From: a virus
Taxonomy: Duplodnaviria > Heunggongvirae > Uroviricota > Caudoviricetes
IMG/VR virus record: IMGVR_UViG_2654587540_000008
DNA length: 14,799 nucleotides
Strand: one strand, 5' to 3'
Program-made: the position numbers and the translations under genes
In this document: one piece after another, positions 1,024 through 14,799 of the stretch
How positions within the stretch are numbered: the stretch's first letter is position 1
How the letters are laid out: each line of letters begins with the position of its first letter
Notes under the pieces: model-generated
What the model was told of the DNA's origin: nothing
The model's input: only the letters and a program-made list of their open reading frames with translations
Database searches by the model: none

Positions 1024-1206
1024 GATAAATGAAGGGGGATCCGTGAGATAAATAACGAATTGGAGTGGGTTAACATGGGTTCTGGTGAACAGAACTGAAA
1101 TTCTTTTTCGCTATACGATAGATAAGTCGGACATTGAAATCATCCTTTCTGGCAACTTAGAATCGAGTTTGCTGAAACATGACCCGTAACAAAAAGGATG
1201 ATTCCA

Positions 1207-1368
1207 ATGACTACTCAAAACAATAAGCATGACAGCCTTGATTACTCAGAAAAGCCCAAAAGCAAGCACATCGTGACGTTCGAGCGCGATTCCGGTAGAA
1301 AAGGAGAATCGTCTTCCTCTGCCAATAAAAACACTATGCCGGCAGCTCCTGCTCCGGGGAAAAAATAA
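1207..1368 (+). CDS. Small hydrophilic ORF (53 aa), hypothetical
   Basis: ATG at 1207 preceded by AAGGA about 8 nt upstream; encodes MTTQNNKHDSLDYSEKPKSKHIVTFERDSGRKGESSSSANKNTMPAAPAPGKK, stop TAA at 1366-1368. Below the 60-aa cutoff of the ORF track. Converges on the minus-strand gene ending at 1372. No recognisable domain. Confidence 0.2.
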   Translation: MTTQNNKHDSLDYSEKPKSKHIVTFERDSGRKGESSSSANKNTMPAAPAPGKK

Positions 1369-1371
1369 ACA

Positions 1372-2004: not shown

Positions 2005-2040
2005 ATTTTCTCCCTGCATCCTGAATACTACAGAGAGAGC

Positions 2041-2077
2041 ATAAAAAAAGCACGGTAAGGGGTCTACCGTGCTTTTA
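2041..2077 (-). terminator. Rho-independent terminator (bidirectional hairpin) ending the minus-strand mor operon
   Basis: Perfect 11-bp inverted repeat AAAGCACGGTA (2047-2057) / TACCGTGCTTT (2065-2075) with a 7-nt loop AGGGGTC. It is flanked by an A7 run at 2043-2049 (a U-run on the minus-strand transcript) and TTTT on the plus strand. Lies 40 bp downstream of the Mor-like stop. Confidence 0.7.
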
Positions 2078-2118
2078 TACAATAAGGAGATTTTTGAAAG
2101 GACTTTAACAAGCAGGAA

Positions 2119-2517
2119 TTATCTGGATTTGTTAACGTCTCTCGTCTCCTCTGGCAGATCTTCATCAAACAACCTGCCCTGCATCCGATCCAGTTCTTCT
2201 TTTCTTACCCGCTTAACCACGCTGTAGACCCACTGAAGCGAAACACCAAATTTGCGGGCCAGTTCGTGGTGGTTGCGTCCGTTAAACTCCCTGAAGATTT
2301 CCCGGTCGCGCTGACTGACCTTCCATACCATGCCCATCGGGAAATAAACGTTTTGCCCGCCCCAGACCTGCATCATTCGGTTCGCGACAGCCTGACCAAT
2401 CTGGTCGGCAATTGCGGGCTCAATATCAATAATCTCGCGAACGGTCTCAGAGGTATGCTGTGCCAGTTCCACCAGGAGTTCCGGCCCTTTACTTCGAAAC
2501 TGATTCAGGTCGCTCAT
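2119..2517 (-). CDS. mor: Mor/C-family transcriptional activator (Mu middle-operon regulator-like)
   Basis: 132-aa ORF. The C-terminal half WGGQNVYFPMG...REIFREFNGRNHHELARKFGVSLQWVYSVVKRVRK matches the Mor/C-family GGQ.VY.P...FNGRN..EL...YGV....VY..I.R.R pattern as I recall it for Mu Mor. AGGAG lies 6 nt upstream of the ATG at 2517. Confidence 0.8.
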   Translation of the reverse strand: MSDLNQFRSKGPELLVELAQHTSETVREIIDIEPAIADQIGQAVANRMMQVWGGQNVYFPMGMVWKVSQRDREIFREFNGRNHHELARKFGVSLQWVYSVVKRVRKEELDRMQGRLFDEDLPEETRDVNKSR

Positions 2518-2938
2518 GTTTTACTCCTGCAGCTCTGCGCTGCCACTTCTTCAGTTTCTCAATAACACTGCTTGCCTGTTCAGTACTGAGCCAGCGCAGA
2601 GCGCTGATGCCCGTTTCCCGCTTGATCCACCGCGCTAATGCATTTTCTGAACGGTCACGAACAATGCCGGCAGCAGCCATTTCAAGCCATAGTGCACGGA
2701 TTTTCCTGGACTGCGGATGGTTATCCAGCGGTAAACCGGAGCTGGCTTTTCCGGCAGGCTTAACGCGAAAGCCTTTCCTTTTCATGGACTCAAGCACGCA
2801 GTTTAGTTGTGTGATATCCATTACTTTGGTTGAGGCCTTACCAGTCAGCCCCTGTAACACCTGGCGGTAGGTGTCTTCATCTAGGCCCAGTTCATTACGG
2901 GCAATATGGATAAGCTGAATCAGTCGTTTTTTCTGCAT
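2489..2938 (-). CDS. GemA-like protein (Mu gp16 / DUF1018-like), immediately upstream of mor
   Basis: 149-aa ORF starting MQKKRLIQLIHIARNELGLDEDTYRQVLQGLTGKAS, resembling the N-terminal motif of Mu GemA-family proteins. Its position directly 5' of the Mor-like gene, with a 29-bp overlap, matches Mu gene order (gemA-mor). Confidence 0.5.
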   Translation of the reverse strand: MQKKRLIQLIHIARNELGLDEDTYRQVLQGLTGKASTKVMDITQLNCVLESMKRKGFRVKPAGKASSGLPLDNHPQSRKIRALWLEMAAAGIVRDRSENALARWIKRETGISALRWLSTEQASSVIEKLKKWQRRAAGVKHERPESVSK

Positions 2939-2939
2939 A

Positions 2940-3143
2940 TCAGCCCCGCTTTTTCAGTCTGCCAGCAGCAATGTCAGTTGCAGCCGGCAGGGTCACAGGC
3001 CAGAACAGTATGACAGCTGTCATATACAGGATGTAATACGCGGTGTCATAGTGGTTACCGAAGCCCAGTGCATAATGAAGCCGGGCACTGCATAATCCTG
3101 CATATGTGTACCAGAAAAGAAAACAGGCAATAGTTTCAGCCAT
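2940..3143 (-). CDS. Small hydrophobic protein, hypothetical
   Basis: The track ORF is 2940..3164; the ATG at 3143 (MAETIACFLFWYTYAG...) gives an 8-bp overlap with the upstream gene. Two hydrophobic segments. Tightly packed within the minus-strand operon. Confidence 0.35.
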   Translation of the reverse strand: MAETIACFLFWYTYAGLCSARLHYALGFGNHYDTAYYILYMTAVILFWPVTLPAATDIAAGRLKKRG

Positions 3144-3543
3144 TATATTTTTTCTCCAGTTCAATATTTTTCAGGTCATTTTCCGCAAACAGGATTGCTG
3201 TTCTGGCACTCCGCAATCGTGCTTTCGCATTTTTTTCTTCACGTTCAAGGCCAGCGACAGATTCACGAAGAGCTTCTCGCTTTTTATGAAGACGATTAAT
3301 TTCATGCACGATATTTTCAGCATTACGGGCACGGTCAAGGATAAATTCAAATGGATCCAGTACAGCCCCACACAGTGAACAGGTCAGCGTCCGGTTGATT
3401 TCAGAGACTGTTGTCCGGGCATGCCGGCACAGGTTTTGTTCGTTATTCTTTCGTTCAGAAATAACCACGTTCAGCAGTTTTTTGGCTTCTGCATCAGGAG
3501 CTGGCTGAAGCAAATGAATAATGTTATCGCTGTCGTTATCCAT
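3136..3543 (-). CDS. Hypothetical protein with a Cys-containing segment and a coiled-coil-like C-terminus
   Basis: The track ORF is 3136..3642; the likely start is the ATG at 3543 (MDNDSDNIIHLL...), with GGAGG 6 nt upstream and an 8-bp overlap with the end of the upstream gene. Contains C..H....C.LCG spacing and a K/E/R-rich C-terminal helix. Confidence 0.5.
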   Translation of the reverse strand: MDNDSDNIIHLLQPAPDAEAKKLLNVVISERKNNEQNLCRHARTTVSEINRTLTCSLCGAVLDPFEFILDRARNAENIVHEINRLHKKREALRESVAGLEREEKNAKARLRSARTAILFAENDLKNIELEKKYNG

Positions 3544-4225
3544 TATATGCCTCCAGTTTCTGTTGTTCCTGCCCACTGACCGGTCGGTGCAGTCTGACGT
3601 TCTGCCCTTCTCGAAACCCCGCATAGCGCGAGGCGTCGCCATTGCGGCTTCTTCCCGGTTTACGCGCTCTGGTGGTTTGCGTTTGCGGGTATTTATGTTC
3701 CAGCCACTGCTGCATCAGTTCACGTTCGTCATCGGTCAGGGCGAAGGACTGTATTTCACTGATAACGGCCAGCACCCAGCCTTCAGCAAACTGGTCACCA
3801 CGGCTGGTACGGGTGGCAGTTTTTATTCTTTTGTTCTGTGTGCTGATATACTGCTGACGCGCCTTTTTCAGCTGGCGGGCCAGCACTTCCCAGGTGTATG
3901 CAGCCAGTGCAGCCCGTTCCCGGTTGCCGTAGAACCCCACACCCGGATATGTGCCGGGGTGAATGATGGAGTTAACACCAAATGCCTCGCGGATGATGTT
4001 CATCAGGCCCAGCATGTAGCGCGGTGGACGGAGACTGCCTGTCGGCCAGTAATGACTGATGGTTTCATCAATATCACTCATGGCAATGTCGGAATGTGTG
4101 ATGCCGTGAACATCCATCAGTTTACGGGCACGGCGCAGTGCCAGAGCGGCTTCGTGTGGGTTGCCGGATGCGGCCAGCGCCAGCAACTTTTTCAGTTTCT
4201 CAATGTGTTTATTCTGGTCTGTCAT
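3536..4225 (-). CDS. DUF2786-like protein (N-terminal KLKKLLALAASGNPHEAALALRRARKLM motif)
   Basis: 229-aa ORF. The N-terminal motif matches the DUF2786 family signature as I recall it. GGAG lies 8 nt upstream of the ATG at 4225, and the start overlaps the upstream stop in an ATGA arrangement. Confidence 0.6.
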   Translation of the reverse strand: MTDQNKHIEKLKKLLALAASGNPHEAALALRRARKLMDVHGITHSDIAMSDIDETISHYWPTGSLRPPRYMLGLMNIIREAFGVNSIIHPGTYPGVGFYGNRERAALAAYTWEVLARQLKKARQQYISTQNKRIKTATRTSRGDQFAEGWVLAVISEIQSFALTDDERELMQQWLEHKYPQTQTTRARKPGRSRNGDASRYAGFREGQNVRLHRPVSGQEQQKLEAYNG

Positions 4226-4437
4226 TGTTCAGTATCTCCGGTATTTTTCTGCCGTTTCCATGCCCGGACAGCGTCGGACAGCTCTTTCAGGCTGTATGCT
4301 GCTTTAAGCTTTTCCCATAACCACTGTGTTGTTATGTGCATCAGCAGGGCAGCCAGGGCTGCCCCCGCACTGAGGCATGTCGCCAGGCCAGTAAGAATCA
4401 GTGTCCATGCGGTGATTTCCCTGAGTATGTCAGCCAT
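4222..4437 (-). CDS. Small membrane protein, hypothetical
   Basis: 71 aa with one strongly hydrophobic segment (WTLILTGLATCLSAGAALAALLM). GGGAGG lies 6 nt upstream of the ATG at 4437. The stop overlaps the downstream start (ATGA), suggesting translational coupling. Confidence 0.5.
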   Translation of the reverse strand: MADILREITAWTLILTGLATCLSAGAALAALLMHITTQWLWEKLKAAYSLKELSDAVRAWKRQKNTGDTEQ

Positions 4438-4451
4438 TGAATGCCTCCCGG

Positions 4452-4748
4452 TTACTCGTTCGTGTAAATCACGCCCAGTCGTGCAGCCAGACGTTCCAGT
4501 TTTTTCTGTTTGTGGAAGTCAATCAGCCGGTCCATCCCCTGAAGGCGCAGCTGCTCTGTCATGATTTCCACGTCTGCCAGCTCTGCCGCGAGGTCACTTT
4601 CGCTGCCCTGTCCGTTCAGGTTGCGGGCGGCACTGGCCGCCAGTTCGGCGGCCTCTTCTGTCAGTTTCAGGGCCTGTGCATCCGGCCCGAAACGCTGCAG
4701 AGCCAGACGATAGAGGGCAGTGCGTGTGAGTATGGTGTTCCGTGTCAT
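4452..4748 (-). CDS. MazG-like nucleotide pyrophosphohydrolase domain protein (phage-type, ~100 aa)
   Basis: 98 aa. Pattern FGP...EEAAEL....ELADVEIM..QL...G.D.....K.KK..R resembles small phage MazG-like proteins. GAGGG lies 5 nt upstream of the ATG at 4748. First gene of the minus-strand operon. Confidence 0.5.
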   Translation of the reverse strand: MTRNTILTRTALYRLALQRFGPDAQALKLTEEAAELAASAARNLNGQGSESDLAAELADVEIMTEQLRLQGMDRLIDFHKQKKLERLAARLGVIYTNE

Positions 4749-4845
4749 GCCGCGCCCTCAGTGCTTCCGGTCGACGGTGATGTGCAGGCCGCCTTCTGCA
4801 GTGGTTTCCATCCGGTATCTGGCCAACATCTTCCGCGTCGGTGGC

Positions 4846-4910
4846 GTTGATCAACTGACTGACTATCGGATCAATATCGGGGGCTGACGGTGAGTGTTGA
4901 ACTGACTGAC
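4846..4910. promoter_or_regulatory. Direct repeats in the divergent intergenic region; candidate operator/promoter elements
   Basis: GTTGATCAACTGACTGAC (4846-4863) and GTTGAACTGACTGAC (4896-4910) share GTTGA..AACTGACTGAC. The first contains the 10-bp palindrome GTTGATCAAC. They lie between the start of the minus-strand operon (4748) and the plus-strand genes. Confidence 0.25.
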
Positions 4911-5171
4911 AAAGGAGGGCGATGTGCGTCACTGGGCATGTCAAATGGTACGTGGTTTACCCTCCTTGATATTCCGGGGGTGGAAACCCTTTTTAATACC
5001 CGTAAAACCAATGACCCGATTGACTGCACACGTTCAAAGGCCCGCAAACTGGCCGATTTGATTGAAGCATGGGAGCCGCCCGACCACTGGTTCTCCGGCA
5101 CCGGCAAATCTGAGGGAAAGGCGCTTCTCATCGCTTTCCTGCGTAACTGCAAGGGTTTTCGCACTTGCTGA
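4890..5171 (+). CDS. Hypothetical small protein; start uncertain (GTG at 4890 or ATG at 4938)
   Basis: Open frame ending TGA at 5169-5171, followed by a GC hairpin (5179-5192) and a T-rich tract. AAGGAGGG at 4912-4919 is poorly spaced for either start. No recognisable domain. Confidence 0.3.
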   Translation: MSVELTDKGGRCASLGMSNGTWFTLLDIPGVETLFNTRKTNDPIDCTRSKARKLADLIEAWEPPDHWFSGTGKSEGKALLIAFLRNCKGFRTC

Positions 5172-5177
5172 CATCAC

Positions 5178-5200
5178 AGGGGCTCCGGCCCCTTCTTCTT
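5178..5200 (+). terminator. Possible weak rho-independent terminator
   Basis: GGGGC (5179-5183), loop TCCG, GCCCC (5188-5192), followed by TTCTTCTT. The stem is short and the U-run is interrupted. Confidence 0.3.
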
Positions 5201-5268
5201 AATCCCCTTTAATATCCGTCACGTCCACTGCCAGACATACTGCTCTGAATTTACAAAGGAGTATGATC

Positions 5269-5604
5269 ATGTCACAGACCCAGTCCGATACTTTTACGCT
5301 GTCTTATCCTTTCACCACTGCTGCAGGTACCAGAATTGAACAGATTGAACTGAAACGCCTGACAGTAAAAGACCTGAAGCAGGTGCGCAAAATCAACAAA
5401 GACCCGGCAGACTGGGACGAACCACTGATTGCCCGTAGCACCGGTATCCTCCCGGAAGACCTCGATAACATGGATCTTGCCGACTATATGGAGCTGCAGA
5501 AACGATTTCAGAAAATCACTGGGCTGGGCAAGAGCGACAAAAACACTGATGCAGGCGCAGGGGCTGCTGGCGAGATGGTTCAGGTTTCAGCCGGGGGAGA
5601 TTGA
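5269..5604 (+). CDS. Tail assembly chaperone (P2 gpE / lambda gpG-like), upstream ORF of a frameshift pair
   Basis: The track ORF starts at 5263; the ATG at 5269 has AAGGAG 7 nt upstream. The protein (..RIEQIELKRLTVKDLKQV...DLADYMELQKRFQKITG..) resembles the gpE family of tail chaperones. It lies immediately upstream of the tape measure gene, as is conserved in long-tailed phages. Confidence 0.75.
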   Translation: MSQTQSDTFTLSYPFTTAAGTRIEQIELKRLTVKDLKQVRKINKDPADWDEPLIARSTGILPEDLDNMDLADYMELQKRFQKITGLGKSDKNTDAGAGAAGEMVQVSAGGD

Positions 5605-5686
5605 TGCCCTCGATACTGACGATCTGGAGATGTGGCTGGAGCAGGCTGAAGAGCAAATCAAAAGCGAGTTCGGCGACAATCAGTAA
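5429..5686 (+). CDS. Overlapping ORF in the +1 frame; putative frameshift extension of the tail chaperone (E'/GT-like)
   Basis: Open in the frame one nucleotide forward of the chaperone frame, overlapping its 3' end and extending 82 nt past its stop to TAA at 5684-5686. A G5 run (5593-5597) lies 5 nt before the chaperone stop. The geometry implies a +1 or -2 shift rather than the canonical -1. Confidence 0.5.
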   Translation: MPVAPVSSRKTSITWILPTIWSCRNDFRKSLGWARATKTLMQAQGLLARWFRFQPGEIDALDTDDLEMWLEQAEEQIKSEFGDNQ

Positions 5687-5778
5687 CAACGTATCACTTA
5701 ACAGCCGCCAGTCGCGGCTGTTCTGCATGGGGTTCAGACACTTCCCTTCCGTTTTTTTGCTTTCAGAGGATAGCCACC

Positions 5779-8244
5779 GTGGCCAGTGAATTTTCAGTCG
5801 GCGTCATTATTGGCGGCATTGTCGGGAGCAGCTTCCGCTCAGCCGTCAGTGGCACCCGACGCGCCCTTGATTCCCTTGGTGATACCTCCCGCCGTCTGCA
5901 GGAACGCCAGAATGCCTTAACCCGGGCAACAGAACGTTATGGTCAGTTGGGTTCTTCCCGGATGCAGCATCTCAACAGCGAGTTGCTGCGGGTAAGCCGC
6001 ACCATGGAGCAAATTGAACGTCAGCAGCGCCGTCTGTCAGCAGTATCAGCCATCGGTGATGCGTTGAAGGCTAACCGCCTGGCGCTCTATGGTCAGGGTG
6101 CAGAAACCTATGCTATTGGCAGAACGCTGGGCGCACCGGTCATGGCCTCGGTTAAACAATATGCCTCGTTTGAATCACAGTTACGGGATATCAGTGTCAC
6201 AGGAGACCTGGATGCAAAACAGGAACGTGCAATTGGCCTGGCTATCAGACAGGCCTCGCTGAAGGTTAACCAACTGCAGGAGTCTCTGTTAGGGGGAGTC
6301 GGACAATTAGTCGCTGATGGTATGGCCCCCGAACGGGCAGCAACGTTTGCAGAGATGCTTGGAAAGACCGCTACAGCAACCAAAGCCGATATGACCGACC
6401 TTGCCAAAATGACTTATGCCTTCAGCGATGCACTCAGAATCACTGATGCGAAAGAACTTGAACAGGCATTTGGTATTGCGGCAACAGGAGCCAAACTTGG
6501 GTCATTTGAGCTGAAGGATATGGCAAAAGCATTACCCGGTATGGCTAAAGCCTTCGCTGCTCGTGGTATTTATGGAAAAGATGCGATTACCCAGATTGTT
6601 GCCAGTCTGGAGGTCGGTAAAGGTAGTGGCTCTGCAGAGGAAGCGGTCACCAATATGTCCAACTGGCTGGCAGCAATGGGCCGCGGAGATACCATCCAGA
6701 AATATGCTAAAGCCGGGGTGGATTACCAGGGGTCAATGCAGAATTACGTCGCTCAGGGTTTTTCGCAGTACGAAGCTTCACTGATGATTGCCAACCGTTT
6801 TATCGACAGTAAAGGCAAAGCGTTCTTGCAGCAATGGAAAGCTGCAGGAGCAAGAGGCGATCAGGAAGGTCAGCAGAAACTCATGGAGTCATTTGGTCTG
6901 GCTGAGGTCTTTACCGATATTCAGACTGTCAACCATTTACTGTCAATGCGACAGGGCTGGGATAAATACCTTTCCAGTAAGCAGGAAATGAATGCTCCGG
7001 CTGCAATGTCTACCCTGGATAAGGATGCTGCAAAGCAGAATGATACGCTTGAAGGTCGCTGGCGCAGAATGCAGATCGGCTTTAATGATTCTGCTATCAG
7101 CATCGGGCAATCCTTGCGTCCGGCTTTGCTCCAGTTGGGTGAAACATTTATTCCTTTAATGGACAGTGTTGGCAAATGGATAGCGGCAAATCCGCAGCTC
7201 GTCAGCAGCACCATAAAGGTTGTGGGCGCATTACTCGCTTTCAGGATGGCCACTATCGGTCTCAAGCTTGGGCTGAACCTCCTTCTTTCCCCCTTTGTAA
7301 GCGTCTGGAAAAATGCTGTTTTACTTCGGGCCAACTGGCTTCGTCTGACGCTCGCACTGGGGGAAGGCGGTAAACTCCGCTGGCTGGTGACAGGCTTTGG
7401 TGCTGTCGCCAGAGGAGCCAGAACACTGGGTGGTGTGCTCTCAGGGGGGCTGGTTCGCGGAATTATGAGCGCCGGGCGTGCCGTTCTCTGGCTTGGCCGG
7501 GCGCTGATGATGAATCCCATCGGTCTCGCTATCACCGCCGTCGCGGCAGCAGCTTACCTTATCTACCGCAACTGGGGCGCGGTCAGTAGCTGGTTTAAAC
7601 AGCGCTGGGCTGACATTCAGGAAGCCTTTAACGGCGGCATCGCGGGAATTGGTAAACTGCTGGTTAACTGGTCTCCGGCAGGTCTGCTTTATAAAGCCTT
7701 TGCGGCTGCGCTGAAATATCTCGGCGTTGATTTGCCGGCGAAATTCACCGACTTCGGTGGTCATCTTATTGACGGGCTGATAAATGGCATCAGAAACAAA
7801 TGGGAGTCACTGAAAACCAGCATAACCGGAATGGGTGACAGCATCAGTGACTGGTTCAGCGAAAAGCTGGGCATCCATTCACCGAGTCGCGTGTTTATAG
7901 GCTTTGGTGACAATATCGCGCAGGGTGCCGCCATTGGCCTGCAACGGACCACTCCGCTTGCTGCACTGGCCGGGCAGCGTCTGGCCGCTGAAATGACACC
8001 GGATGTTCCCCGTATCCCGTCGCCGGAAATCATGGCTGCCGGATATTCAGGCCGTGGCGCAACTGCAACCGGCGGTGGAGCGTCTGGCGGTATCCAGGTC
8101 AGCTTTAATCCTCAGTTTTTCCTCAATGGTAAGGAAACCGCAGCGCCTGCCGGGCTGGCTGGTGCCCTGAATATGAGCCTGCATGAGCTGGAAAAAATGC
8201 TGGAGCGTCTGCTGGCTCAGAAACAACGTAAGGAGTACAGCTGA
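5779..8244 (+). CDS. Tail tape measure protein
   Basis: 821-aa ORF from a GTG start at 5779 (GAGGA 9 nt upstream). N-terminal helical, Q/R/E-rich region, a central glycine-rich hydrophobic stretch (...GFGAVARGARTLGGVLSGGLVRGIMSAG...) and position directly after the chaperone pair are typical of tape measure proteins. Confidence 0.85.
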   Translation: MASEFSVGVIIGGIVGSSFRSAVSGTRRALDSLGDTSRRLQERQNALTRATERYGQLGSSRMQHLNSELLRVSRTMEQIERQQRRLSAVSAIGDALKANRLALYGQGAETYAIGRTLGAPVMASVKQYASFESQLRDISVTGDLDAKQERAIGLAIRQASLKVNQLQESLLGGVGQLVADGMAPERAATFAEMLGKTATATKADMTDLAKMTYAFSDALRITDAKELEQAFGIAATGAKLGSFELKDMAKALPGMAKAFAARGIYGKDAITQIVASLEVGKGSGSAEEAVTNMSNWLAAMGRGDTIQKYAKAGVDYQGSMQNYVAQGFSQYEASLMIANRFIDSKGKAFLQQWKAAGARGDQEGQQKLMESFGLAEVFTDIQTVNHLLSMRQGWDKYLSSKQEMNAPAAMSTLDKDAAKQNDTLEGRWRRMQIGFNDSAISIGQSLRPALLQLGETFIPLMDSVGKWIAANPQLVSSTIKVVGALLAFRMATIGLKLGLNLLLSPFVSVWKNAVLLRANWLRLTLALGEGGKLRWLVTGFGAVARGARTLGGVLSGGLVRGIMSAGRAVLWLGRALMMNPIGLAITAVAAAAYLIYRNWGAVSSWFKQRWADIQEAFNGGIAGIGKLLVNWSPAGLLYKAFAAALKYLGVDLPAKFTDFGGHLIDGLINGIRNKWESLKTSITGMGDSISDWFSEKLGIHSPSRVFIGFGDNIAQGAAIGLQRTTPLAALAGQRLAAEMTPDVPRIPSPEIMAAGYSGRGATATGGGASGGIQVSFNPQFFLNGKETAAPAGLAGALNMSLHELEKMLERLLAQKQRKEYS

Positions 8245-9128
8245 TGTTTGCCGTACTGGGTGATATTGAGTTTGAGCTGATTACCTACTGGGACGGCTTC
8301 GAGGCCACGTTTGGCGTCGATTATGCGGAGCATGCCCGCATCGAGGGTAAACCCGGCCTGCAGTTCGTCGGCGACAGGCTGGACGAAATCCAGATAAGCC
8401 TGGTCTTCCATCAGCATTATTGTGTGCCCGACGTGGAGCTGGCGAGAGTGCGAACAGCCATGAAGGCCCATCAGGCACTGGCGCTGGTCTTCGGCAACGG
8501 TGACTATCGCGGCTGGTTCGTGATTACCGATGTGACCGCAACCAGCGAGCAGACAGACAGCACCGGTAACGTGCTGGCTGTCAGTGCCACCGTGTCTCTC
8601 CGGGAATACACCGGTGACCCGAAAAATCCTCTGCAACCGCCGGCAATACGCAGGCAGGTTCCCGGTGCCGGGGCCGTATCTGGTGCTGTTCCATCGCCTT
8701 CCGGGGTGGCGCAGTTCGTCCGTAACGGCGTCAACTATGCGAAACAGGCGCAGTCTGTACTCCAGACCACTATCAGTGCCGTTCGGGTGGCGCAGAAAAT
8801 GAAGGGTAACCCCGTTGTCGCGCTGACCCGTGTGCCGGGACTGATGAGCGGACTGGGTAATATATCCGGAGCTCTGGGGAAAAGTGTTCCGGCGTTTAAT
8901 GCACTCTCTGAATCCATGCCCGATGCCATCAGTCTGGCCAGAACAGCCAGTGAGGCAGCCACGTATGTACAGCAGGCGCAGTCGGCGCTGAGTGGTGTGG
9001 ACAAAAGAAATATTGCAGGTGCTCTGGATACCGTTTCCGGGCAGCTTAACGCCGCCGGCACAGCATTCAACCGCATGTCTCCGGGATTAAGTGCAATGGC
9101 CGCCAGAATACTGACGAGGAGTGTGTGA
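8244..9128 (+). CDS. Tail protein with gpU / DNA-circulation-N-like N-terminal domain and a low-complexity Ala/Ser/Gly-rich C-terminal extension
   Basis: The ATG overlaps the tape measure stop (TGATG) with AAGGAG 8 nt upstream. The first ~125 aa (MFAVLGDIEFEL...GKPGLQFVGDRLDEIQISLVFH...GNGDYRGWFVITDVTATSEQTDSTGNVLAVSATVSLREY) align by eye with the P2 gpU-type fold. The remaining ~170 aa are low-complexity and unassigned. Confidence 0.65.
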   Translation: MFAVLGDIEFELITYWDGFEATFGVDYAEHARIEGKPGLQFVGDRLDEIQISLVFHQHYCVPDVELARVRTAMKAHQALALVFGNGDYRGWFVITDVTATSEQTDSTGNVLAVSATVSLREYTGDPKNPLQPPAIRRQVPGAGAVSGAVPSPSGVAQFVRNGVNYAKQAQSVLQTTISAVRVAQKMKGNPVVALTRVPGLMSGLGNISGALGKSVPAFNALSESMPDAISLARTASEAATYVQQAQSALSGVDKRNIAGALDTVSGQLNAAGTAFNRMSPGLSAMAARILTRSV

Positions 9129-9205
9129 TGTTTCTTGAACATATTACCCGTGACGGAGAGCGCTGGGATTCTCTGTGGATGAGGCACTGGCCATTGATGT
9201 GCTGA
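9128..9205 (+). pseudogene. Short out-of-frame leader ORF (MFLEHITRDGERWDSLWMRHWPLMC), possible remnant N-terminus of a deleted or frameshifted tail gene
   Basis: ATG at 9128, 25 codons, in a different frame from the J-like ORF that opens at 9175. The J-like protein lacks the N-terminal part expected for baseplate J proteins. The GDxWDSL motif is reminiscent of LysM-like tail protein X N-termini (weak). Confidence 0.3.
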
Positions 9206-9987
9206 TCCCGGCAGGCACCCGCGTCAGCGCTTCCGACAGTATTATTTTTGCCACCGATACAGATGTGGTGCTGAAGGCCGGATTGCTGCTGGTCAATGTC
9301 ACGTCCACCTGTACCGAGCCGGGTACCGCTGGCAACGGCTGGCAACCGGCGCAGGTCAGTCAGTTACTCGATGAGATTGATAACATTGACCTGCTGGTGA
9401 CCAATCTGACGGCCAGCTCTGGCGGTTCAGAGCAGGAAGACGATGACCGGCTCCGGGAGCGTATCAGGCTGGCCCCGGAGTCATTCACCAATGCCGGAAG
9501 CCGTGGTGCATACCGTTTTCATGCTATGGGGGCGCATCCCGGCATTGTCGACGTTGCTGTTCTTTCTCCCGCTCCCGGCACTGTCGAGCTGTATCCGCTG
9601 CTCAGCACTGGTCTGCCGGACAGCAGTATCCTCACTCTGGTAGAGAGTTTCTGTTCTGACGAAAAAGTCAGACCACTCACTGATACCGTGCGGGCTAAAA
9701 CACCTGTTCAGGTGGATTACACCATTGAAGCCAGGATTACGATCTATCGTGATCAGGATGCAAGGTTGGTAAAGGACAACGCTAACAGCGCCATACAGAA
9801 CTGGGTGGCATCCCGTACCGCCACGCTGGGGCGCGATATTGTTCCCAGCCAGATTATCAGCGTGTTGTCCGTTTCCGGGGTGTACCAGGTCGAACTGGTG
9901 ACACCGGCACTGAGGGTGGTGGCAGAAAACGAATGGGCAAACTGTACGGCGATCACTCTTAACATGACCGGGGTGTCCGATGGCTGA
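9175..9987 (+). CDS. Baseplate assembly protein J-like (P2 gpJ / Mu gp47 family), apparently N-terminally truncated
   Basis: 270 aa from the first in-frame start (GTG at 9175). The C-terminal two thirds (..GSRGAYRFHAMGAHPGIVDVAVLSPAPGTVELY...TLGRDIVPSQIISVLSVSGVYQVELVTP...) match the gpJ family as I recall it. An 8-bp overlap (ATGGCTGA) with the I-like gene is typical of J-I pairs. Confidence 0.7.
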   Translation: MDEALAIDVLIPAGTRVSASDSIIFATDTDVVLKAGLLLVNVTSTCTEPGTAGNGWQPAQVSQLLDEIDNIDLLVTNLTASSGGSEQEDDDRLRERIRLAPESFTNAGSRGAYRFHAMGAHPGIVDVAVLSPAPGTVELYPLLSTGLPDSSILTLVESFCSDEKVRPLTDTVRAKTPVQVDYTIEARITIYRDQDARLVKDNANSAIQNWVASRTATLGRDIVPSQIISVLSVSGVYQVELVTPALRVVAENEWANCTAITLNMTGVSDG

Positions 9988-10558
9988 GGTGCTACAACTC
10001 CCGCCACCGCTTGAGGGTGATATCAGTCTCAGAACGCTGGGAAGACTGGCCGGACGGCTGGATAACATCGACCTGAGCGTACTGATGGTCGGTCTCGTCG
10101 ATATTGTCGACAGTTCCGCGCTGCCATGGCTTGGCGAGCAGTTCTCGCTGTTCGGCGATGGCTGGGAACTGGCGGAATCGGACGATGTACGCCGCATGCT
10201 TATCAAATCCGCTATCGAGCTACACCGCTATAAAGGAACACCGTGGTCAATCCGGGAAATTATCCGCCGTTTTGGCTTCGGCGAAGTGGATCTGATTGAA
10301 GGTACGGGGCAGATTGGCTATGACGGCAGACACACGTACAACGGGCTTTTCGTCCATGGCGATGCACAAGCCTGGGCAGTCTATCGGGTCATCCTTCAAC
10401 AGCCCATCACTAATGATCAGGCAGCGCTGTTACGTCAGACGCTTGCTGCCTTTGCTCCGGCTCGCTGTCATCTGGCAAGTCTGGAATATCAGTCTGTCGC
10501 CATTCGATACAACAGTACTACCCGTTATGACGGTAGTTACAACCACGGGAGCAGTTAA
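9980..10558 (+). CDS. Tail protein I-like (P2 gpI / Mu gp48 family)
   Basis: 192 aa containing IELHRYKGTPWSIREIIRRFGFGEVDLIEG, a hallmark-like motif of the gpI family. Positioned between the J-like gene and the tail fibre gene. Confidence 0.75.
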   Translation: MAEVLQLPPPLEGDISLRTLGRLAGRLDNIDLSVLMVGLVDIVDSSALPWLGEQFSLFGDGWELAESDDVRRMLIKSAIELHRYKGTPWSIREIIRRFGFGEVDLIEGTGQIGYDGRHTYNGLFVHGDAQAWAVYRVILQQPITNDQAALLRQTLAAFAPARCHLASLEYQSVAIRYNSTTRYDGSYNHGSS

Positions 10559-10560
10559 TT

Positions 10561-11643
10561 ATGGCAAATCTACCCGAAACCCCGCAGTGGGAAAGCGGCA
10601 TCTACCAGATTGAGGTCTCTGACCCCGTTCTGGGCGGACCTGACGGAATTTCTAACCGCCAGGCTAAACAACTGGCCAGCCGAACGTCATACCTCAAACA
10701 GAAGGTCGAAAAAAGCGAAACAGACCTGGCTGCACATATCGCGGCAGTTGACCCGCATACCCAGTACGCGACGAAAGCCAGTCCGACATTCACCGGCACA
10801 CCAACAGCACCTACACCTGCAAATGGTGATAACAGCAAAAAGCTGGCGACGACGGAGTTTGTGGCCAAAGCACTTGCGGCACTTGCAGGCAGCGCCCCTG
10901 AGACACTGGATACGCTTAAAGAGCTGGCTGACGCTCTCGGTAATGATCCAAACTTTGCGACTACGGTACTGAACAAGCTGGCGGAAAAGCTGGCTAAAGA
11001 CCAGAACGGCGCAGATATTCCTGAGCCTGCGCTGTTTGTCAAAAACCTTGGTTTGGGGGAAGGCTCTGCACTGCCCGTTGGTGTGCCTGTTCCGTGGCCA
11101 TCAGCAACACCGCCAGAGGGATGGCTGAAATGTAACGGCGCAGCATTTTCTTCTGAAATGTACCCCAAACTGGCAAAGGCTTATCCCACGAATAAATTAC
11201 CGGATTTACGGGGTGAATTTATCCGTGGCTGGGATGACGGACGTGGCGTGGATGCGGGGCGAACATTACTGGGTGCTCAGGATTTTGCGTTTGAAGATCA
11301 TGCTCTGGGGCTACCTACCAATCAGGGATATGCAGGTATTGAGAAAGGTAGCACTGAAAATGATATTTATGCCGCTTTCTCTGATGGCATGCACTATACA
11401 GGGAATGCAACCAGTAGCGGTCAATGGGATGATTATTCTCAGTCAAAAATCTATATCCGTAGTGATGGTAAACCTGTCGGAAATAACATTGAGTTAGCTA
11501 ATTCAAATGAGGCCTTGCGTTCTTCTTTACGTACTTATAGAGCCAGTACAGGATGGTATAACCCAGGATTAAACAAACCTAAAACAGCTACAGAAACACG
11601 TCCACGCAACGTTGCTTTTAATTACATCGTAAGAGCCGCATGA
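10561..11643 (+). CDS. Tail fibre protein: constant N-terminal part (10561 to about 11047) fused to currently expressed variable C-terminal cassette A
   Basis: 360 aa. The N-terminus has phage tail-fibre repeat-like sequence (VDPHTQYATKASPTFTGTPTAPTPANGDNSKKLATTEFV). The C-terminal part begins with a tail-collar-like module (WLKCNGAAFSSEMYPKLAKAYPTNKLPDLRGEFIRGWDDGRG) and ends ETRPRNVAFNYIVRAA. The crossover site lies inside the gene at 11036-11061. Confidence 0.85.
   Translation: MANLPETPQWESGIYQIEVSDPVLGGPDGISNRQAKQLASRTSYLKQKVEKSETDLAAHIAAVDPHTQYATKASPTFTGTPTAPTPANGDNSKKLATTEFVAKALAALAGSAPETLDTLKELADALGNDPNFATTVLNKLAEKLAKDQNGADIPEPALFVKNLGLGEGSALPVGVPVPWPSATPPEGWLKCNGAAFSSEMYPKLAKAYPTNKLPDLRGEFIRGWDDGRGVDAGRTLLGAQDFAFEDHALGLPTNQGYAGIEKGSTENDIYAAFSDGMHYTGNATSSGQWDDYSQSKIYIRSDGKPVGNNIELANSNEALRSSLRTYRASTGWYNPGLNKPKTATETRPRNVAFNYIVRAA
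11036..11061 (+). other. Serine-invertase crossover site (hix/gix/cix-like), expression-site copy
   Basis: TTGTCAAAAACC-TT-GGTTTGGGGGAA has the 12-2-12 architecture and AAACC nn GGTTT core of hixL (TTCTTGAAAACC AA GGTTTTTGATAA) and gix sites, as recalled. It sits exactly at the constant/variable junction of the tail fibre gene. Confidence 0.7.
11048..11253 (+). repeat. Conserved 5' cassette module, copy A (tail-collar-like domain coding, ~200 bp)
   Basis: Encodes GLGEGSALPVGVPVPWPSATPPEGWLKCNGAAFSSEMYPKLAKAYPTNKLPDLRGEFIRGWDDGRG. Near-identical DNA recurs at 11649, 12193 and, inverted, at about 13990-14194, with a partial inverted copy at about 13592-13700. Confidence 0.85.
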
Positions 11644-11662
11644 AAACGTTGGTTTGGGGGAA
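11637..11662 (+). other. Crossover-site-like sequence at the cassette A/B junction, with a degenerate left half-site
   Basis: CGCATGAAAACG-TT-GGTTTGGGGGAA. The right half and centre are identical to the expression-site copy; the left half retains only the AAAAC core (5 of 12 matches). Confidence 0.4.
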
Positions 11663-11854
11663 GGCTCTGCACTGCCCGTTGGTGTGCCTGTTCCGTGGCC
11701 ATCAGCCACACCGCCAGAGGGCTGGCTGAAATGCAACGGCGCAGCATTTTCTTCTGAAATGTACCCCAAACTGGCAAAGGCTTACCCCACCAATAAATTA
11801 CCGGATTTACGCGGTGAGTTTATTCGTGGCTGGGATGACGGGCGCGGAGTAGAT
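11649..11854 (+). repeat. Conserved 5' cassette module, copy B
   Basis: Near-identical to 11048-11253 with scattered, mostly synonymous substitutions; the encoded peptide is identical through GWDDGRG. Confidence 0.85.
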
Positions 11855-12187
11855 ACAGGACGTGTTTTATTAAGTAATCAAACAGATGCTTTTCAAACAC
11901 ACAGACATAAGACCTATTTTTATGCAGGTATCAACCGTAATGAAATGCCTTTAAAAAATTTACCTGAATCAGAAGAAATGCTGACATTAAGCTCTACAGT
12001 TAATGCCTTGTCTCCAGCCGATATTGATGCCACAAATTCATTAATTGGGAATGACGATTACAACTGTGTTATTGAAGGCAATAAAAACAGTAAACGTACA
12101 GCGACAGAGTTGAATACCAGCTCTACAGGCACAACAGAAACCCGCCCCCGCAATATTGCTTTTAACTTCATTGTAAGAGCAGCATAG
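11651..12187 (+). CDS. Silent alternative tail-fibre C-terminal cassette B (no independent start codon or RBS)
   Basis: Open frame beginning right after the stop of cassette A. It encodes the same 65-aa tail-collar module, then a divergent ~95-aa region, and ends with the conserved ETRPRNIAFNFIVRAA and TAG. The track start is an internal TTG with no Shine-Dalgarno sequence. Confidence 0.7.
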   Translation, partial: GLGEGSALPVGVPVPWPSATPPEGWLKCNGAAFSSEMYPKLAKAYPTNKLPDLRGEFIRGWDDGRGVDTGRVLLSNQTDAFQTHRHKTYFYAGINRNEMPLKNLPESEEMLTLSSTVNALSPADIDATNSLIGNDDYNCVIEGNKNSKRTATELNTSSTGTTETRPRNIAFNFIVRAA

Positions 12188-12206
12188 AAACGTTGGTTTG
12201 GGGGAA
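12181..12206 (+). other. Crossover-site-like sequence at the cassette B/C junction, with a degenerate left half-site
   Basis: AGCATAGAAACG-TT-GGTTTGGGGGAA; same right half and centre as the expression-site copy. Confidence 0.4.
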
Positions 12207-12398
12207 GGCTCGGCGCTGCCTGTTGGCGTGCCGGTTCCATGGCCGTCAGCCACACCGCCAGAGGGCTGGCTGAAATGTAACGGCGCAGCATTTTCTTCTG
12301 AAATGTACCCCAAACTGGCAAAGGCTTACCCCACCAATAAATTACCGGATTTACGGGGTGAGTTTATTCGTGGCTGGGATGACGGGCGCGGAATTGAC
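12193..12398 (+). repeat. Conserved 5' cassette module, copy C
   Basis: Near-identical to copies A and B; the encoded peptide is identical through GWDDGRG. Confidence 0.85.
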
Positions 12399-12665
12399 TC
12401 TGGTCGCAACCTGTTATCTGCACAGAATGATGCAATTCAGAATATTGTTGGTTCTTTTGGGCGTACCCAGCTTTTTAAAGACGTTCTTAGTTCAGGACCA
12501 TTTAGTAGAATTAATCAAGTTTTATCTATTGGTCTAAAGGAAACGGAATTTATTGAGGGTTATGGAGCTTATAACTGGACATTCGACGCTTCTCGAGCGG
12601 TTCGTACAGCATCTGAAACCCGCCCCCGAAATATTACATTTAACTATATCGTGAGGGCGGCTTAA
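12195..12665 (+). CDS. Silent alternative tail-fibre C-terminal cassette C
   Basis: Same conserved 5' module, a divergent middle (..NLLSAQNDAIQNIVGSFGRTQLFKDVLSSGPFSRINQVLSIGLKETEFIEGYGAYNWTFDASRAVRTAS..) and the conserved end ETRPRNITFNYIVRAA, stop TAA at 12663-12665. No start codon context. Confidence 0.7.
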   Translation, partial: GLGEGSALPVGVPVPWPSATPPEGWLKCNGAAFSSEMYPKLAKAYPTNKLPDLRGEFIRGWDDGRGIDSGRNLLSAQNDAIQNIVGSFGRTQLFKDVLSSGPFSRINQVLSIGLKETEFIEGYGAYNWTFDASRAVRTASETRPRNITFNYIVRAA

Positions 12666-12671
12666 TTATGA

Positions 12672-13289
12672 TCAACTGACAGTTGCCAGAGGCATTTCCG
12701 GCCAGTTGATATCCGGCGCAGTGCTGAGGTCAGTCGCATTAAGCGCATCTATAAAATCAAGCACGGCGTTCAGTTTTTCCGTCTCCTGTGGCGTCAACTG
12801 GCGTCCGGCTCGTAGTTTGAGATTTATAAGCTCAACGGATGCCATTGCCTGCTCCTCAAGTTGCTGACGATGCGCTCCGGCAGCTTCCAGTTCTGCAGTG
12901 TGCTGTCGTTCCGTATCTGTCACCCAGTTCTCACCATCCCAGATATCATAGATGGTAGCTGGCTGTTTTACCGTCGTATCAGAAGGGTAATCTCCCGGCT
13001 GTGTGATTTGCACAGCGTTACCATTCTCTGTGCTGTAAACCGTCTCGCCTCTGTGGTCTGGGACATATTTCCAGATGTTCTGGTCGGTATCACGACAGAC
13101 AGCGAAGCCAGGGCGCTCTTCCGGTGGCGCGTCAATGCATGAATGAGCCGGAATTCCAACACCATAAGCGAGATATTCAACAGTGGCAGAGAGATATTCA
13201 CGGTTTTCAGCATCGTAGTTATAAACTGTAATATCGCCTGCAGTTGTAGCGATACCATTCTGATCAAGTACTGCAACAGCGTTATTCAT
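12672..13289 (-). CDS. Tail fibre assembly protein (Tfa; Mu U / P2 gpG / lambda Tfa family)
   Basis: 205 aa. The C-terminus ..LNAVLDFIDALNATDLSTAPDINWPEMP has the typical Tfa ending. The start codon overlaps the stop of cassette D as TAATG (translational coupling). It converges on cassette C with 6 bp between stops. Confidence 0.8.
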   Translation of the reverse strand: MNNAVAVLDQNGIATTAGDITVYNYDAENREYLSATVEYLAYGVGIPAHSCIDAPPEERPGFAVCRDTDQNIWKYVPDHRGETVYSTENGNAVQITQPGDYPSDTTVKQPATIYDIWDGENWVTDTERQHTAELEAAGAHRQQLEEQAMASVELINLKLRAGRQLTPQETEKLNAVLDFIDALNATDLSTAPDINWPEMPLATVS

Positions 13290-13700
13290 TAAATAGCCCT
13301 TACAATATAGTTAAACGCAATATTACGGGGGCGGGTTTCTGTTCCTGTATTCCCTCCGTTGACACCTAACCTGTACACACCACGAGTGCCAATAGCACGT
13401 AGTGAAGATGGAACCTTTACGCCTGACTCATCTGTTTTAACTATCCCTCCATCCCCGTATGTAGCCAGTATACCAGGATTTGTACCTGCACGTGTGCTGT
13501 TTGCAGCAAGCCCTTCACCGGTCCATAACTCCATATAGTGAGTATGATCCATAACCGAATGTGGTTGTGCATTAAGCAAGAAACGCCCTGAATCAATTCC
13601 CCGTCCGTCATCCCAGCCACGAATAAACTCACCCCGTAAATCCGGTAATTTATTGGTGGGGTAAGCCTTTGCCAGTTTGGGGTACATTTCAGAAGAAAAT
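13289..13700 (-). CDS. Alternative tail-fibre C-terminal cassette D (inverted orientation, 5' end truncated by an N run), followed by tfa
   Basis: Minus-strand frame encoding ..SSEMYPKLAKAYPTNKLPDLRGEFIRGWDDGRGIDSGRFLLNAQPHSVMDHTHYMELWTGEGL...TGTETRPRNIAFNYIVRAI. The first ~100 bp of the conserved module are missing where the N run 13701-13710 sits. Confidence 0.7.
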
Positions 13701-13710
13701 NNNNNNNNNN
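13701..13710. other. Run of 10 N at the cassette E/D junction; assembly gap or masked sequence
   Basis: By comparison with the A/B and B/C junctions, about 97 bp of conserved sequence (crossover site plus start of the tail-collar module) is expected here, so the 10 N do not represent true length. Confidence 0.9.
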
Positions 13711-13715
13711 CGTTT

Positions 13716-14194
13716 CTATGCTGCTCTTACAATGAAGTTAAAAGCAATATTGCGTGGACGAGTTATATTAAAAAATGACCCACTTAAAGCAACTTTGGAA
13801 CGGCTATTGGCGTTACCCAGAGATGCGTACCATAAATAATCGCTCCGATAATCAGTTGAGAATGTTTTATCACCGCCATAATCAATGCTATTACCGTTAC
13901 TCATATATGAAATATCAACTGAAGCATCATTGTCATCTCTACCACCAACTAAAGTACCTTTCTGCCACCCAAGCAACTGGCGGCCAGGATCAATTCCCCG
14001 TCCATCATCCCAGCCACGAATAAACTCACCCCGTAAATCCGGTAATTTATTCGTGGGATAAGCCTTTGCCAGTTTGGGGTACATTTCAGAAGAAAATGCT
14101 GCGCCGTTACATTTCAGCCAGCCCGCTGGCGGTGTGGCTGACGGCCACGGAACAGGCACACCAACGGGCAGTGCAGAGCCTTCCCCCAAACCAA
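13716..14194 (-). CDS. Alternative tail-fibre C-terminal cassette E (inverted orientation)
   Basis: Minus-strand frame encoding the full conserved module (one substitution, PPAGW instead of PPEGW), a divergent middle (..QLLGWQKGTLVGGRDDNDASVDISYMSNGNSIDYGGDKTFSTDYRSDYLWYASLGNANSRSKVALSGSFFN) and ITRPRNIAFNFIVRAA. The track's upstream extension to 14228 runs through the N run and is not trusted. Confidence 0.7.
13990..14194 (-). repeat. Conserved 5' cassette module, copy E (inverted)
   Basis: Reverse complement is near-identical to 11048-11253. Confidence 0.85.
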
Positions 14195-14204
14195 NNNNNN
14201 NNNN
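14195..14204. other. Run of 10 N exactly where the crossover half-site of cassette E is expected
   Basis: On the minus strand the sequence reads ...CTTTGTTTTG-N10-TTGGTTTGGGGGAA. The N run replaces the left half-site and lies 22 bp upstream of the invertase start. Confidence 0.9.
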
Positions 14205-14226
14205 CAAAACAAAGAGGATATTTTTC

Positions 14227-14799
14227 ATGCAAATTGGCTACATTCGTGTGTCAACAAATGACCAGAATACAGATTTACAACGAAACGCACTGAACTGCGC
14301 AGGATGTGAACTGATTTTTGAAGATAAAATCAGCGGAACAAAGTCAGCCAGACCAGGATTGAAAAAGCTACTCAGAACTTTATCAGAAGGAGATACGCTC
14401 GTTGTCTGGAAGCTGGACAGGCTGGGCAGAAGCATGAAGCACCTTATCACTCTTATTGAGGAACTGCGGGGAAAAGGGGTTAACTTCCGTAGCCTTACAG
14501 ACAGCATTGATACGTCAACACCCATGGGACGTTTCTTTTTTCACATCATGGGGGCTTTGGCGGAAATGGAGCGTGAATTAATAGTTGAACGAACACTGGC
14601 CGGACTTGAAGCAGCACGTGCACAGGGGCGTATTGGCGGACGCCGTCCGAAACTGACAAAAGAGCAACATGAACAAATAGCAAGGCTGATCAAAAATGGC
14701 TATAGCAGGAAACAACTGGCAATTATTTACGATATCGGCATATCGACGATTTATCGTTATCACCCGGTAGAAAAGCTACAAACTCAAACTGAGTTGTAA
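14227..14799 (+). CDS. Gin/Pin/Cin/Hin-family serine DNA invertase
   Basis: 190 aa. MQIGYIRVSTNDQNTDLQRNAL...DTLVVWKLDRLGRSMKHL...FRSLTDSIDTSTPMGRFFFHIMGALAEMERELIVERT...GRIGGRRPKL is near-identical in motif content to Gin/Pin/Hin as recalled. The catalytic Ser is at position 9 and there is a C-terminal helix-turn-helix. The track ORF from 14074 is an upstream artefact; stop TAA at 14797-14799. Confidence 0.92.
   Translation: MQIGYIRVSTNDQNTDLQRNALNCAGCELIFEDKISGTKSARPGLKKLLRTLSEGDTLVVWKLDRLGRSMKHLITLIEELRGKGVNFRSLTDSIDTSTPMGRFFFHIMGALAEMERELIVERTLAGLEAARAQGRIGGRRPKLTKEQHEQIARLIKNGYSRKQLAIIYDIGISTIYRYHPVEKLQTQTEL

Follow-up and report, generated by a model that had tools for sequence, protein, structure and literature searches.

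The DNA analysed here (14,799 nt, hereafter called the window) opens in the fimbrial gene ybgO of Escherichia coli and continues into a prophage related to BcepMu-like phages. Its layout was derived from a listing of open reading frames (ORFs) and from domain searches with Pfam and PHROG.

1-1023, plus strand: host fimbrial gene ybgO; about 4,400 complete E. coli genomes match up to position 1013
1011-4815, minus strand: left arm of a BcepMu-like prophage; early genes, labelled from Pfam, are Mor (2119-2517), GemA/gp16 (2489-2938), DUF2786 (3536-4225) and a gene at 4452-4748
4816-4817: junction 1, a 2-bp TA overlap at which the early region meets the 3' end of the tail tube gene (three-way alignment and BLAST map)
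4816-4887, plus strand: what is left of the tail tube gene, its final 72 nt (about 23 codons and the stop)
4890-5171, plus strand: small tail-region protein (DUF7739, PHROG 1239), intact
5269-5604, plus strand: tail assembly chaperone (gpE-like, Phage_TAC_7), intact
5779-8244, plus strand: intact gene for a tape measure protein of 821 aa; its length of 2,466 nt is also that of the M-17 and KP12 genes
8244-9128, plus strand: gpU-like tube initiator, 294 aa, full length
9128-9171, plus strand: part of the gene for tail protein X (LysM-type glue protein), classed as a remnant; X-derived DNA ends at 9171
9128-9205, plus strand: chimeric 25-codon ORF, MFLEHITRDGERWDSLWMRHWPLMC, made of X codons 1-16, nine out-of-frame codons of J DNA and TGA
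9169-9171: junction 2, the scar; TTC common to both breakpoints
9169-9987, plus strand: codons 96-367 of the 367 of a baseplate J gene, classed as a pseudogene fragment
9980-10558, plus strand: gpI-like baseplate wedge protein (Tail_P2_I), 192 aa, intact
10561-11643, plus strand: tail fibre gene (gpH-like, Collar domain)

On the 3' side of the tail fibre gene lie several alternative cassettes for the fibre C-terminus, a fibre-assembly gene and a serine invertase gene (about 14226-14799).

Boundaries and gene content of the prophage remnant

The last codons of ybgO are swapped for the left end of the prophage, which starts with TGATCAGAC at position 1011, and the ybgO ORF terminates in phage DNA. 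The sequence across this boundary reads ...CACCCCCATTGATCAGACATGAG..., and the right end of the prophage, ...GCGCATCA, lies just past the window, where it is seen in locus L005. The motif CCCCAT flanks both prophage ends and is found as a single copy at the empty ybgO-abrB site of strain ECOR29. Since both ends are present together with this duplication of the empty site, the remnant arose by decay in place from a complete transposable prophage.

Four intact relatives were used for comparison: the prophage of E. coli M-17 (NZ_CP068394.1, 1.98-2.00 Mb), that of E. coli STIN_95, Escherichia phage PhiKM (PQ738613.1) and a clone of Klebsiella phage KP12 (OM835952.1). These BcepMu-like elements share with the window their gene order, their end sequences, the 294-aa U, the 821-aa tape measure and the 192-aa I proteins, and 88-99.8% DNA identity over the retained segments. 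The window differs from them by the lack of 2,517 bp in the tail module and of about 22 kb between the early region and the tube gene, and by its site in ybgO: an insertion there is absent from all 5,426 complete E. coli genomes, none of which carries an intact copy of the prophage at this site that could be the direct parent. Prophages of this family are carried by about 12% of complete E. coli genomes (638/5,426).

The intact order of the tail genes is U(294)-X(70)-D(384)-V(170-198)-W(115)-J(367)-I(192), with lengths in amino acids and with the tape measure gene T(821) upstream. In KP12 and in PhiKM (classified as Bcepmuvirus), the tape measure gene is followed by an 885-nt U gene, a 213-nt X gene, the genes for gpD, gpV and gpW, a 1,104-nt J gene, I and H. 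The M-17 prophage follows the same order, with X(70)-D(384)-V(175)-W(115)-J(367)-I(192) after U(294). Ten long contigs whose DUF7739 protein is the same as that of the window show sheath-tube-DUF7739-chaperone-T(821)-U(294)-X(70)-D(384)-V(170-175), and in nine of them W(115) is reached before the locus stops. The window instead reads U, X' (16 codons), J' (codons 96-367) and I.

Positions 1011-4817 are 97.9% identical to the left arm of the intact prophage of about 38 kb in STIN_95 (L004 20001-23807), in which the early genes run on into gam, a B-like ATPase gene, the DDE transposase gene, the repressor region, and the lysis and head genes. At junction 1 the window passes directly from the early region into the tube gene, and gam, the B-like ATPase, the DDE transposase, the repressor region, lysis, head, sheath and most of the tube are missing. 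The size of this deletion, about 22 kb, was obtained by stitching together the coordinates of L004 (STIN_95) and L003 (M-17). By tblastn, tube residues 145-174 map to 4795-4884, and true identity begins at 4816. The damage to this prophage goes far beyond what had been noticed when the letters alone were read, since it includes this upstream deletion.

Compared with its intact relatives, the element as a whole lacks transposase, lysis, head, sheath, tube, X, D, V, W and the N-terminus of J. Recognizable insertion boundaries and the loss of essential genes relative to intact close relatives, the two marks of a cryptic prophage decayed by deletion, are thus both present. The tail genes that remain are all open and nearly identical to functional copies, without frameshifts or premature stops relative to M-17. 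The tape measure gene differs from that of M-17 by 34 synonymous and 21 non-synonymous codons and by no frameshift, and the gpI-like protein is 100% identical to its M-17 counterpart. This absence of inactivating changes in the retained genes suggests that the deletions are recent.

The gpU-like protein and the remnants of X and J

An earlier, sequence-only reading of this DNA had proposed a deletion scar across positions 8620-9205, in part because the gpU fold appeared limited to the first ~125 aa of the 294-aa protein and the rest seemed atypical. The limited extent of the fold is borne out by Pfam, in which GpU (PF06995) matches residues 6-123 with 129 bits (cut-off 27.5). The remainder of the protein proved to be ordinary for its family. 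Proteins of the same 294-aa length are encoded by M-17, PhiKM and KP12, at 99.7, 96 and 90% identity, respectively, and residues 1-293 match PHROG 788 ("tail protein", 297 positions) with E=7e-133. The profile check that had been proposed for residues 130-294 speaks against a foreign origin: taken alone, this segment matches positions 130-296 of the same PHROG with E=2e-47. We collected 302 homologues, mostly of 294-310 aa. Those aligned over their full length have 294-310 aa and identities down to 45%, with representatives in Pectobacterium, Xenorhabdus, Ralstonia, Burkholderia and Chromobacterium.

An AlphaFold2 model built with 24 diverse homologues (mean pLDDT 67.9) comprises the GpU beta domain, a linker and helices. 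The Pro/Gly-rich linker, at about residues 134-152, is predicted to be disordered, and long helices with pLDDT of about 70-92 are predicted at about 155-290. Foldseek searches with the model retrieved baseplate chains of the Agrobacterium phages 7-7-1 and Milano and of pyocin R2 (6u5b_g), with E-values of 3e-4 to 2e-3 and low TM-scores of 0.2-0.3; the helical part resembles four-helix bundles, also with low TM-scores. A sequence search of the PDB with the gpU-like protein gave insignificant matches only (E>=0.08). The possibility that the C-terminal half of U is foreign or low-complexity filler was ruled out by the conservation of the full-length protein and by the predicted helical domain. 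Judged from these comparisons, the Ala/Ser/Gly/Val-rich C-terminal half of the protein is native and not a fusion remnant, and positions 8620-9127 are ordinary coding sequence that bears no scar. The 294-aa protein should not be flagged as aberrant.

The ORF of 25 codons that had been noticed at the stop of the gpU-like gene, in another frame, is indeed present: its ATG and the TGA that closes the 294-aa gene overlap as TGATG. Its first 16 residues are identical to those of the 70-aa X proteins of M-17, PhiKM and KP12. Intact X matches the Pfam family Phage_tail_X (PF05489), a LysM-like domain of about 60 residues. The 25-codon ORF holds 16 of the 70 X residues only and matches PHROG 46 weakly (E=0.0026). 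By this alignment it is a remnant of X and not a member of PF05489.

The J-like ORF lacks its N-terminal region, as had been suspected. It aligns with residues 96-367 of intact 367-aa J proteins and differs from the M-17 protein by one substitution. The start chosen by gene callers is an internal GTG at 9175, which gives an ORF of 270 aa (9175-9987). Pfam Baseplate_J (PF04865) matches this ORF with 197.5 bits (cut-off 21.1) over profile positions 35-254 only, whereas the intact 367-aa J covers positions 1-254. Residues 1-95 and the native ATG are gone, and an internal Val codon comes first; compared with the complete gene, the 270-aa ORF is a pseudogene fragment.

X starts at a position congruent to 2 modulo 3 and the J codons are congruent to 1 modulo 3, so that X and J are joined out of frame. 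This join accounts for both the chimeric 25-codon ORF and the J fragment that lacks its native start codon. The earlier proposal that an internal deletion with a frameshift had fused remnants of genes is correct at its core; the fused remnants, however, are those of X and J, not of U and J. Read-through from X' into J' by a -1 frameshift was considered and rejected on inspection: there is no X XXY YYZ heptamer in 9154-9175, and the J frame is shut upstream of 9154 by stop codons that include the TGA at 9151-9153. A weak GGGA motif lies 6 nt upstream of the GTG at 9175, and some translation of J' may occur. Both the 270-aa "baseplate J" ORF and the 25-codon ORF are to be annotated as pseudogene fragments.

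Position, carriers and origin of the X-J junction

The deletion suspected between the gpU-like and J genes is real when the window is set against intact relatives; it lies at 9169-9171 and does not extend across 8620-9205. Alignment with intact tail modules, as had been recommended for finding the breakpoints, gave a 3-bp overlap at these positions. A megablast search of positions 7800-10600 against phage records yielded two blocks that meet at query positions 1370-1375, that is, at window positions 9169-9174. Positions 4816-9175 correspond to L003 5131-9490 of M-17 at 98.2% identity and positions 9169-11240 to L003 12001-14072 at 99.1%. For the J half, identity rises to 99.8% with M-17, the closest complete relative found; for 4816-9171, the best of the contigs with an identical DUF7739 protein (L014) is 99.5% identical. 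Relative to M-17, 2,517 bp (L003 9487-12003) are missing. This length is read from close relatives (M-17 and PhiKM) and not from the parent; the equivalent segment of PhiKM measures about 2.58 kb because of its longer V gene. The deleted segment holds X codons 15-70, the whole genes for gpD (hub), gpV (spike) and gpW (sheath initiator), and J codons 1-95. The spike, hub and W-like genes had already been reported as missing, and we confirmed this by tblastn: with an intact relative's tail proteins as queries, no sheath, gpD, gpV or gpW homologue came up anywhere in the window, and of the tube, X and J genes the search located only the last ~23 codons, the start, and the part from about residue 96, respectively.

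The sequences at the junction are GGGATTCGCTGG for X, CAGTTCTCTGTGG for J and GGGATTCTCTGTGG for the window; over a longer span the three are GGGATTCGCTGGCATGG, CTTCAGTTCTCTGTGGATGAGG and GGGATTCTCTGTGGATGAGG, respectively. The parental breakpoints share TTCnCTG (six of seven bases), with the crossover inside TTC. As the junction is defined by comparison with intact relatives and not by a statistical signal, an explanation by chance does not arise.

The source is a draft assembly, with two runs of 10 N in the window (13701-13710 and 14195-14204) and a gap of 5.6 kb in the tail-fibre region of L005, and the join of X to J might be put down to mis-assembly of short reads. The distribution of the junction makes this very improbable. 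The 35-nt junction, 100% identical over all shared sequence, occurs in four distinct places that represent at least four independently assembled samples and 24 contigs; its carriers, which come from different projects and assemblers, are the NCBI assemblies GCA_000488035.1 and GCA_965251465.1 and the Logan assemblies ERR12864261 and SRR958478. The exact 270-aa product of J' is recorded in 25 blocks of the assembly collection. Moreover, an overlap of 3 bp at the breakpoints is far too short to mislead an assembler, and the N runs are 4.5 kb away, in the repeated tail-fibre cassettes. Given the identical sequence in these separate assemblies, the X-J junction is not an assembly artefact. It is found in none of the 5,426 complete E. 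coli genomes; 635 of these match the region and carry both halves at separate places, which indicates that the scar marks a rare lineage. An exact scan for the 35-nt junction in a species-representative collection also returned none, a result that is uninformative as this collection holds one genome per species.

The explanation that we favour is that a BcepMu-like myovirus prophage, transposable and of the Mu type, transposed into the 3' end of E. coli ybgO and was pared to the present element by internal deletions, and that a single illegitimate deletion between X and J removed 2,517 bp from the already decaying prophage, so that no tail is assembled. To this explanation as a whole we give a probability of about 95%. 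The X-J deletion would be the second of the internal deletions of the element. It would have arisen by a single illegitimate recombination between TTC in X codon 15 and TTC at J codon 96, through replication slippage or another RecA-independent, microhomology-mediated joining. The 25-codon X' ORF would then be translationally coupled to the intact gpU-like gene, and the J fragment would be left without a start codon. Both junctions have the few shared bases typical of microhomology deletions (TTC at junction 2, TA at junction 1), with one copy kept, and no direct or inverted repeat flanks junction 2. The 3-bp microhomology, with repeats and recombinase sites absent, points to a microhomology-mediated deletion; it fits several joining mechanisms and singles out none of them.

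The prophage does encode a serine invertase (about 14226-14799), and crossover-like AAACNTTGGTTT sites are present in the fibre region, so that the segment might have been lost by site-specific or programmed excision, through this invertase or another recombinase acting at cryptic sites. These sites are at 11043, 11644 and 12188 only, and with none near 9170 we dropped excision by the invertase. There is no direct or inverted repeat at the junction, the intact breakpoints share TTCnCTG only, and a programmed event would be expected to recur, against which the junction is in none of the 635 matching complete genomes. We regard excision of this kind as highly unlikely. The short homology, the lack of repeats and crossover sites, and the absence of the junction from hundreds of related prophages fit a one-off illegitimate deletion.

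Still less credible is a genuinely compact architecture, that is, a lineage in which the 294-aa U is followed by a short J and the tail is built without separate X, D, V and W proteins. The native state of the 294-aa U and the open frames of all retained genes are compatible with it, and the sequence-only reading had itself named intact phages with such an arrangement as the test. The outcome of this test is divided: the 294-aa protein does recur in intact phages, but in none of them is a 270-aa J found beside it. X-D-V-W and a 367-aa J lie between U and I in every intact relative examined, and the flanks are 98-99.8% identical to these relatives and do not belong to a diverged lineage. Furthermore, the 25-codon ORF consists of X codons 1-16 and out-of-frame J sequence, and sheath and tube are missing too. 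A compact architecture is refuted by these alignments.

A last alternative concerns the aftermath and leaves the deletion itself undisputed. Tape measure, U, J', I, fibre, cassettes and invertase might be kept by selection, as a reservoir of fibre cassettes for co-resident Mu-like phages or for a new role of J' or X'. The retained genes are all intact and open, and the remnant is common to at least two structural variants of the locus. Intactness is, however, what a recent deletion would leave, and the carrier copies are 100% identical, which has given no time for decay and gives no power to detect selection; a tailocin is impossible without sheath, tube, hub and spike. Domestication is in our opinion improbable, if less so than the other alternatives.

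The second structural variant, L007, was found in several samples. In it the usher gene ybgQ is joined directly to the sequence from window position 4816 onward, as ...CTCGACTA/TCTGG (the slash marks the breakpoint). The early-region junction of the window reads ...CCGGTA/TCTGG, and the right-hand breakpoint of L007 is the same to within 0-3 bp. L007 and the window type both keep the block T-U-X'/J'-I-H-cassette-invertase, including the X-J scar. One possible origin of L007 is a nested, second deletion in which the old junction was used again; another is an independent deletion with a 5-bp GACTA homology to the intact tube gene. From the shared breakpoint, either a deletion hot spot or retention of the block for its usefulness could follow. 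No general hot spot at 4816 is evident, as 638 of 638 complete genomes with the tube/DUF7739 region have it uninterrupted. We consider it improbable that the remnant is more than debris, either through a lineage-specific hot spot at 4816 or through retention of the block as a useful donor of fibre cassettes to co-resident Mu-like phages.

Consequences for the tail module and comparison with known prophages

In phage P2, the tube is initiated by gpU and the sheath by gpW, the LysM protein gpX acts as glue, gpD serves as hub and gpV as spike, and a wedge of the baseplate consists of two gpJ and one gpI (bioRxiv 10.64898/2026.09.14.750843). By analogy, what has been lost here, namely the glue, hub, spike and sheath-initiator proteins together with the N-terminal portion of the wedge, would be the centre of a P2/Mu-type baseplate. 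With the baseplate centre, the sheath and the tube gone, no tail, phage or tailocin would be expected from this locus, in agreement with the earlier suggestion that the tail module is probably non-functional. This prediction draws on the known roles of the missing proteins. Neither is the locus a tailocin cluster, for homologues of sheath, D, V and W are lacking and the tube is reduced to 23 codons. The retained tail genes, all open and nearly identical to functional copies, need not be silent.

The tail module belongs to the same Pfam families as that of P2: GpU, Tail_X, GPD, base_V, GPW_gp25, Baseplate_J and Tail_P2_I. The module of P2 comprises gpT-gpU-gpX-gpD and gpV-gpW-gpJ-gpI-gpH. The intact relatives have all these genes contiguous, whereas in the window the central five are deleted or truncated. 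A further difference from P2 is that U carries a C-terminal helical domain of about 170 aa that is absent from P2 gpU.

Decay of prophages by internal deletion is textbook knowledge, and the prophage e14 of E. coli K-12 offers an example, with its pseudogenes jayE (baseplate J-like) and beeE, its Pin invertase and its fibre cassettes. Like the element described here, e14 has a truncated J-like gene beside I-like and fibre genes, an invertible fibre segment and a serine invertase, and has lost its head genes and most of its tail genes. In contrast to e14, the element is of the transposable Mu type and not a lambdoid prophage with an integrase, and its chromosomal site and breakpoints are others. 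This particular scar and the ybgO insertion appear to be undescribed, yet they represent nothing new in kind. All the genes are members of well-known families, and the case is one of ordinary prophage decay.

The significance of the locus is small outside annotation, where it should be entered as a defective Mu-like prophage and not as a functional tail or tailocin cluster. It shows cleanly, at base-pair resolution, how a prophage decays step by step through short-homology deletions, and the junction GGGATTCTCTGTGGATG can be used as a lineage marker for the E. coli clone that carries it.

A second internal deletion and two variants of the locus

An internal deletion of about 22 kb, larger than the one that joined tail protein X to baseplate J (the X-J scar), has its junction at window 4816–4817, with a TA overlap. 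The junction brings together the minus-strand early region (1011–4815) and the 3'-terminal 72 nt of the tail tube gene (4816–4887). The transposase, the B-like ATPase, gam, the repressor region, the lysis, head and sheath genes, and most of the tube gene were lost. In L007, an assembly of the same locus from another sample set, the usher gene ybgQ is joined straight to the sequence from window 4816 onward (L007 5560–5720 compared with window 4734–4894), and is 100% native as far as the breakpoint. With ybgQ at this position in L007 and the early region in the window, one right-hand breakpoint (within 0–3 bp) therefore has two left partners. The X-J scar is identical in both variants. The shared breakpoint at 4816 reflects either a nested event that used the existing junction again or a separate deletion with GACTA microhomology. 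Among complete genomes, the 4816 region is continuous in all 638 that carry it, none showing an interruption.

The prophage lies within the final codons of ybgO, where its insertion alters the C-terminus of the YbgO protein. A CCCCAT target duplication is present on both sides. The positions concerned are window 1000–1023, about 18290–18320 in L005, another assembly of the locus, and 540–560 in locus L019. This insertion site of the prophage in ybgO was found in 0 of 5,426 complete E. coli genomes.

The tail-fibre cassettes

Window 10561–14799 constitutes a multi-cassette tail-fibre region.

Features of the tail-fibre region (window coordinates, strand, description)
11654–12187, +, C-terminal fibre cassette downstream of the fibre gene
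12198–12665, +, C-terminal fibre cassette downstream of the fibre gene
12672–13289, −, fibre-assembly gene
13289–13687, −, fibre cassette
13716–14228, −, fibre cassette
from about 14226, serine invertase

All fibre cassettes share a repeated Collar-domain segment, conserved and about 200 bp long. Crossover-like sites AAACNTTGGTTT are located at window 11043, 11644, and 12188. The region is similar to Min of p15B and other multiple-inversion systems. At the edges of the minus-strand cassettes, the expected places for crossover sites, there are two N runs (13701–13710 and 14195–14204), each exactly 10 N long. At the first fibre repeat (about 11077–11174), the L006–L008 assemblies of the locus stop and L005 has a 5.6-kb gap. 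These N runs, assembly ends, and gap could result from repeat-induced assembly breaks or from heterogeneity due to ongoing inversion.

The gpU-like protein and the chaperone region

Within residues 130–294 (window 8631–9125), the gpU-like tube-initiator homologue of this phage family has a conserved domain of about 140 aa at its C-terminus, predicted to form long helices after a disordered Pro/Gly linker. P2 gpU lacks this domain. Some records label the protein "methyl-accepting chemotaxis protein". Some 364-aa database entries (P0001, P0003, and P0005) contain both GpU and Tail_X domains, corresponding to 294 + 70 aa, and such U-X fusions occur in other strains, for example in Salmonella Agona. 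The presumed cause is either annotation or an alteration of the TGATG in which stop and start overlap.

A short ORF (5601–5789) overlaps the gpE-like chaperone gene (5269–5604) at its 3' end and reaches the start of the tape measure gene. Frameshifted E' chaperone products are usually encoded at this position, which makes the ORF a putative E' candidate.
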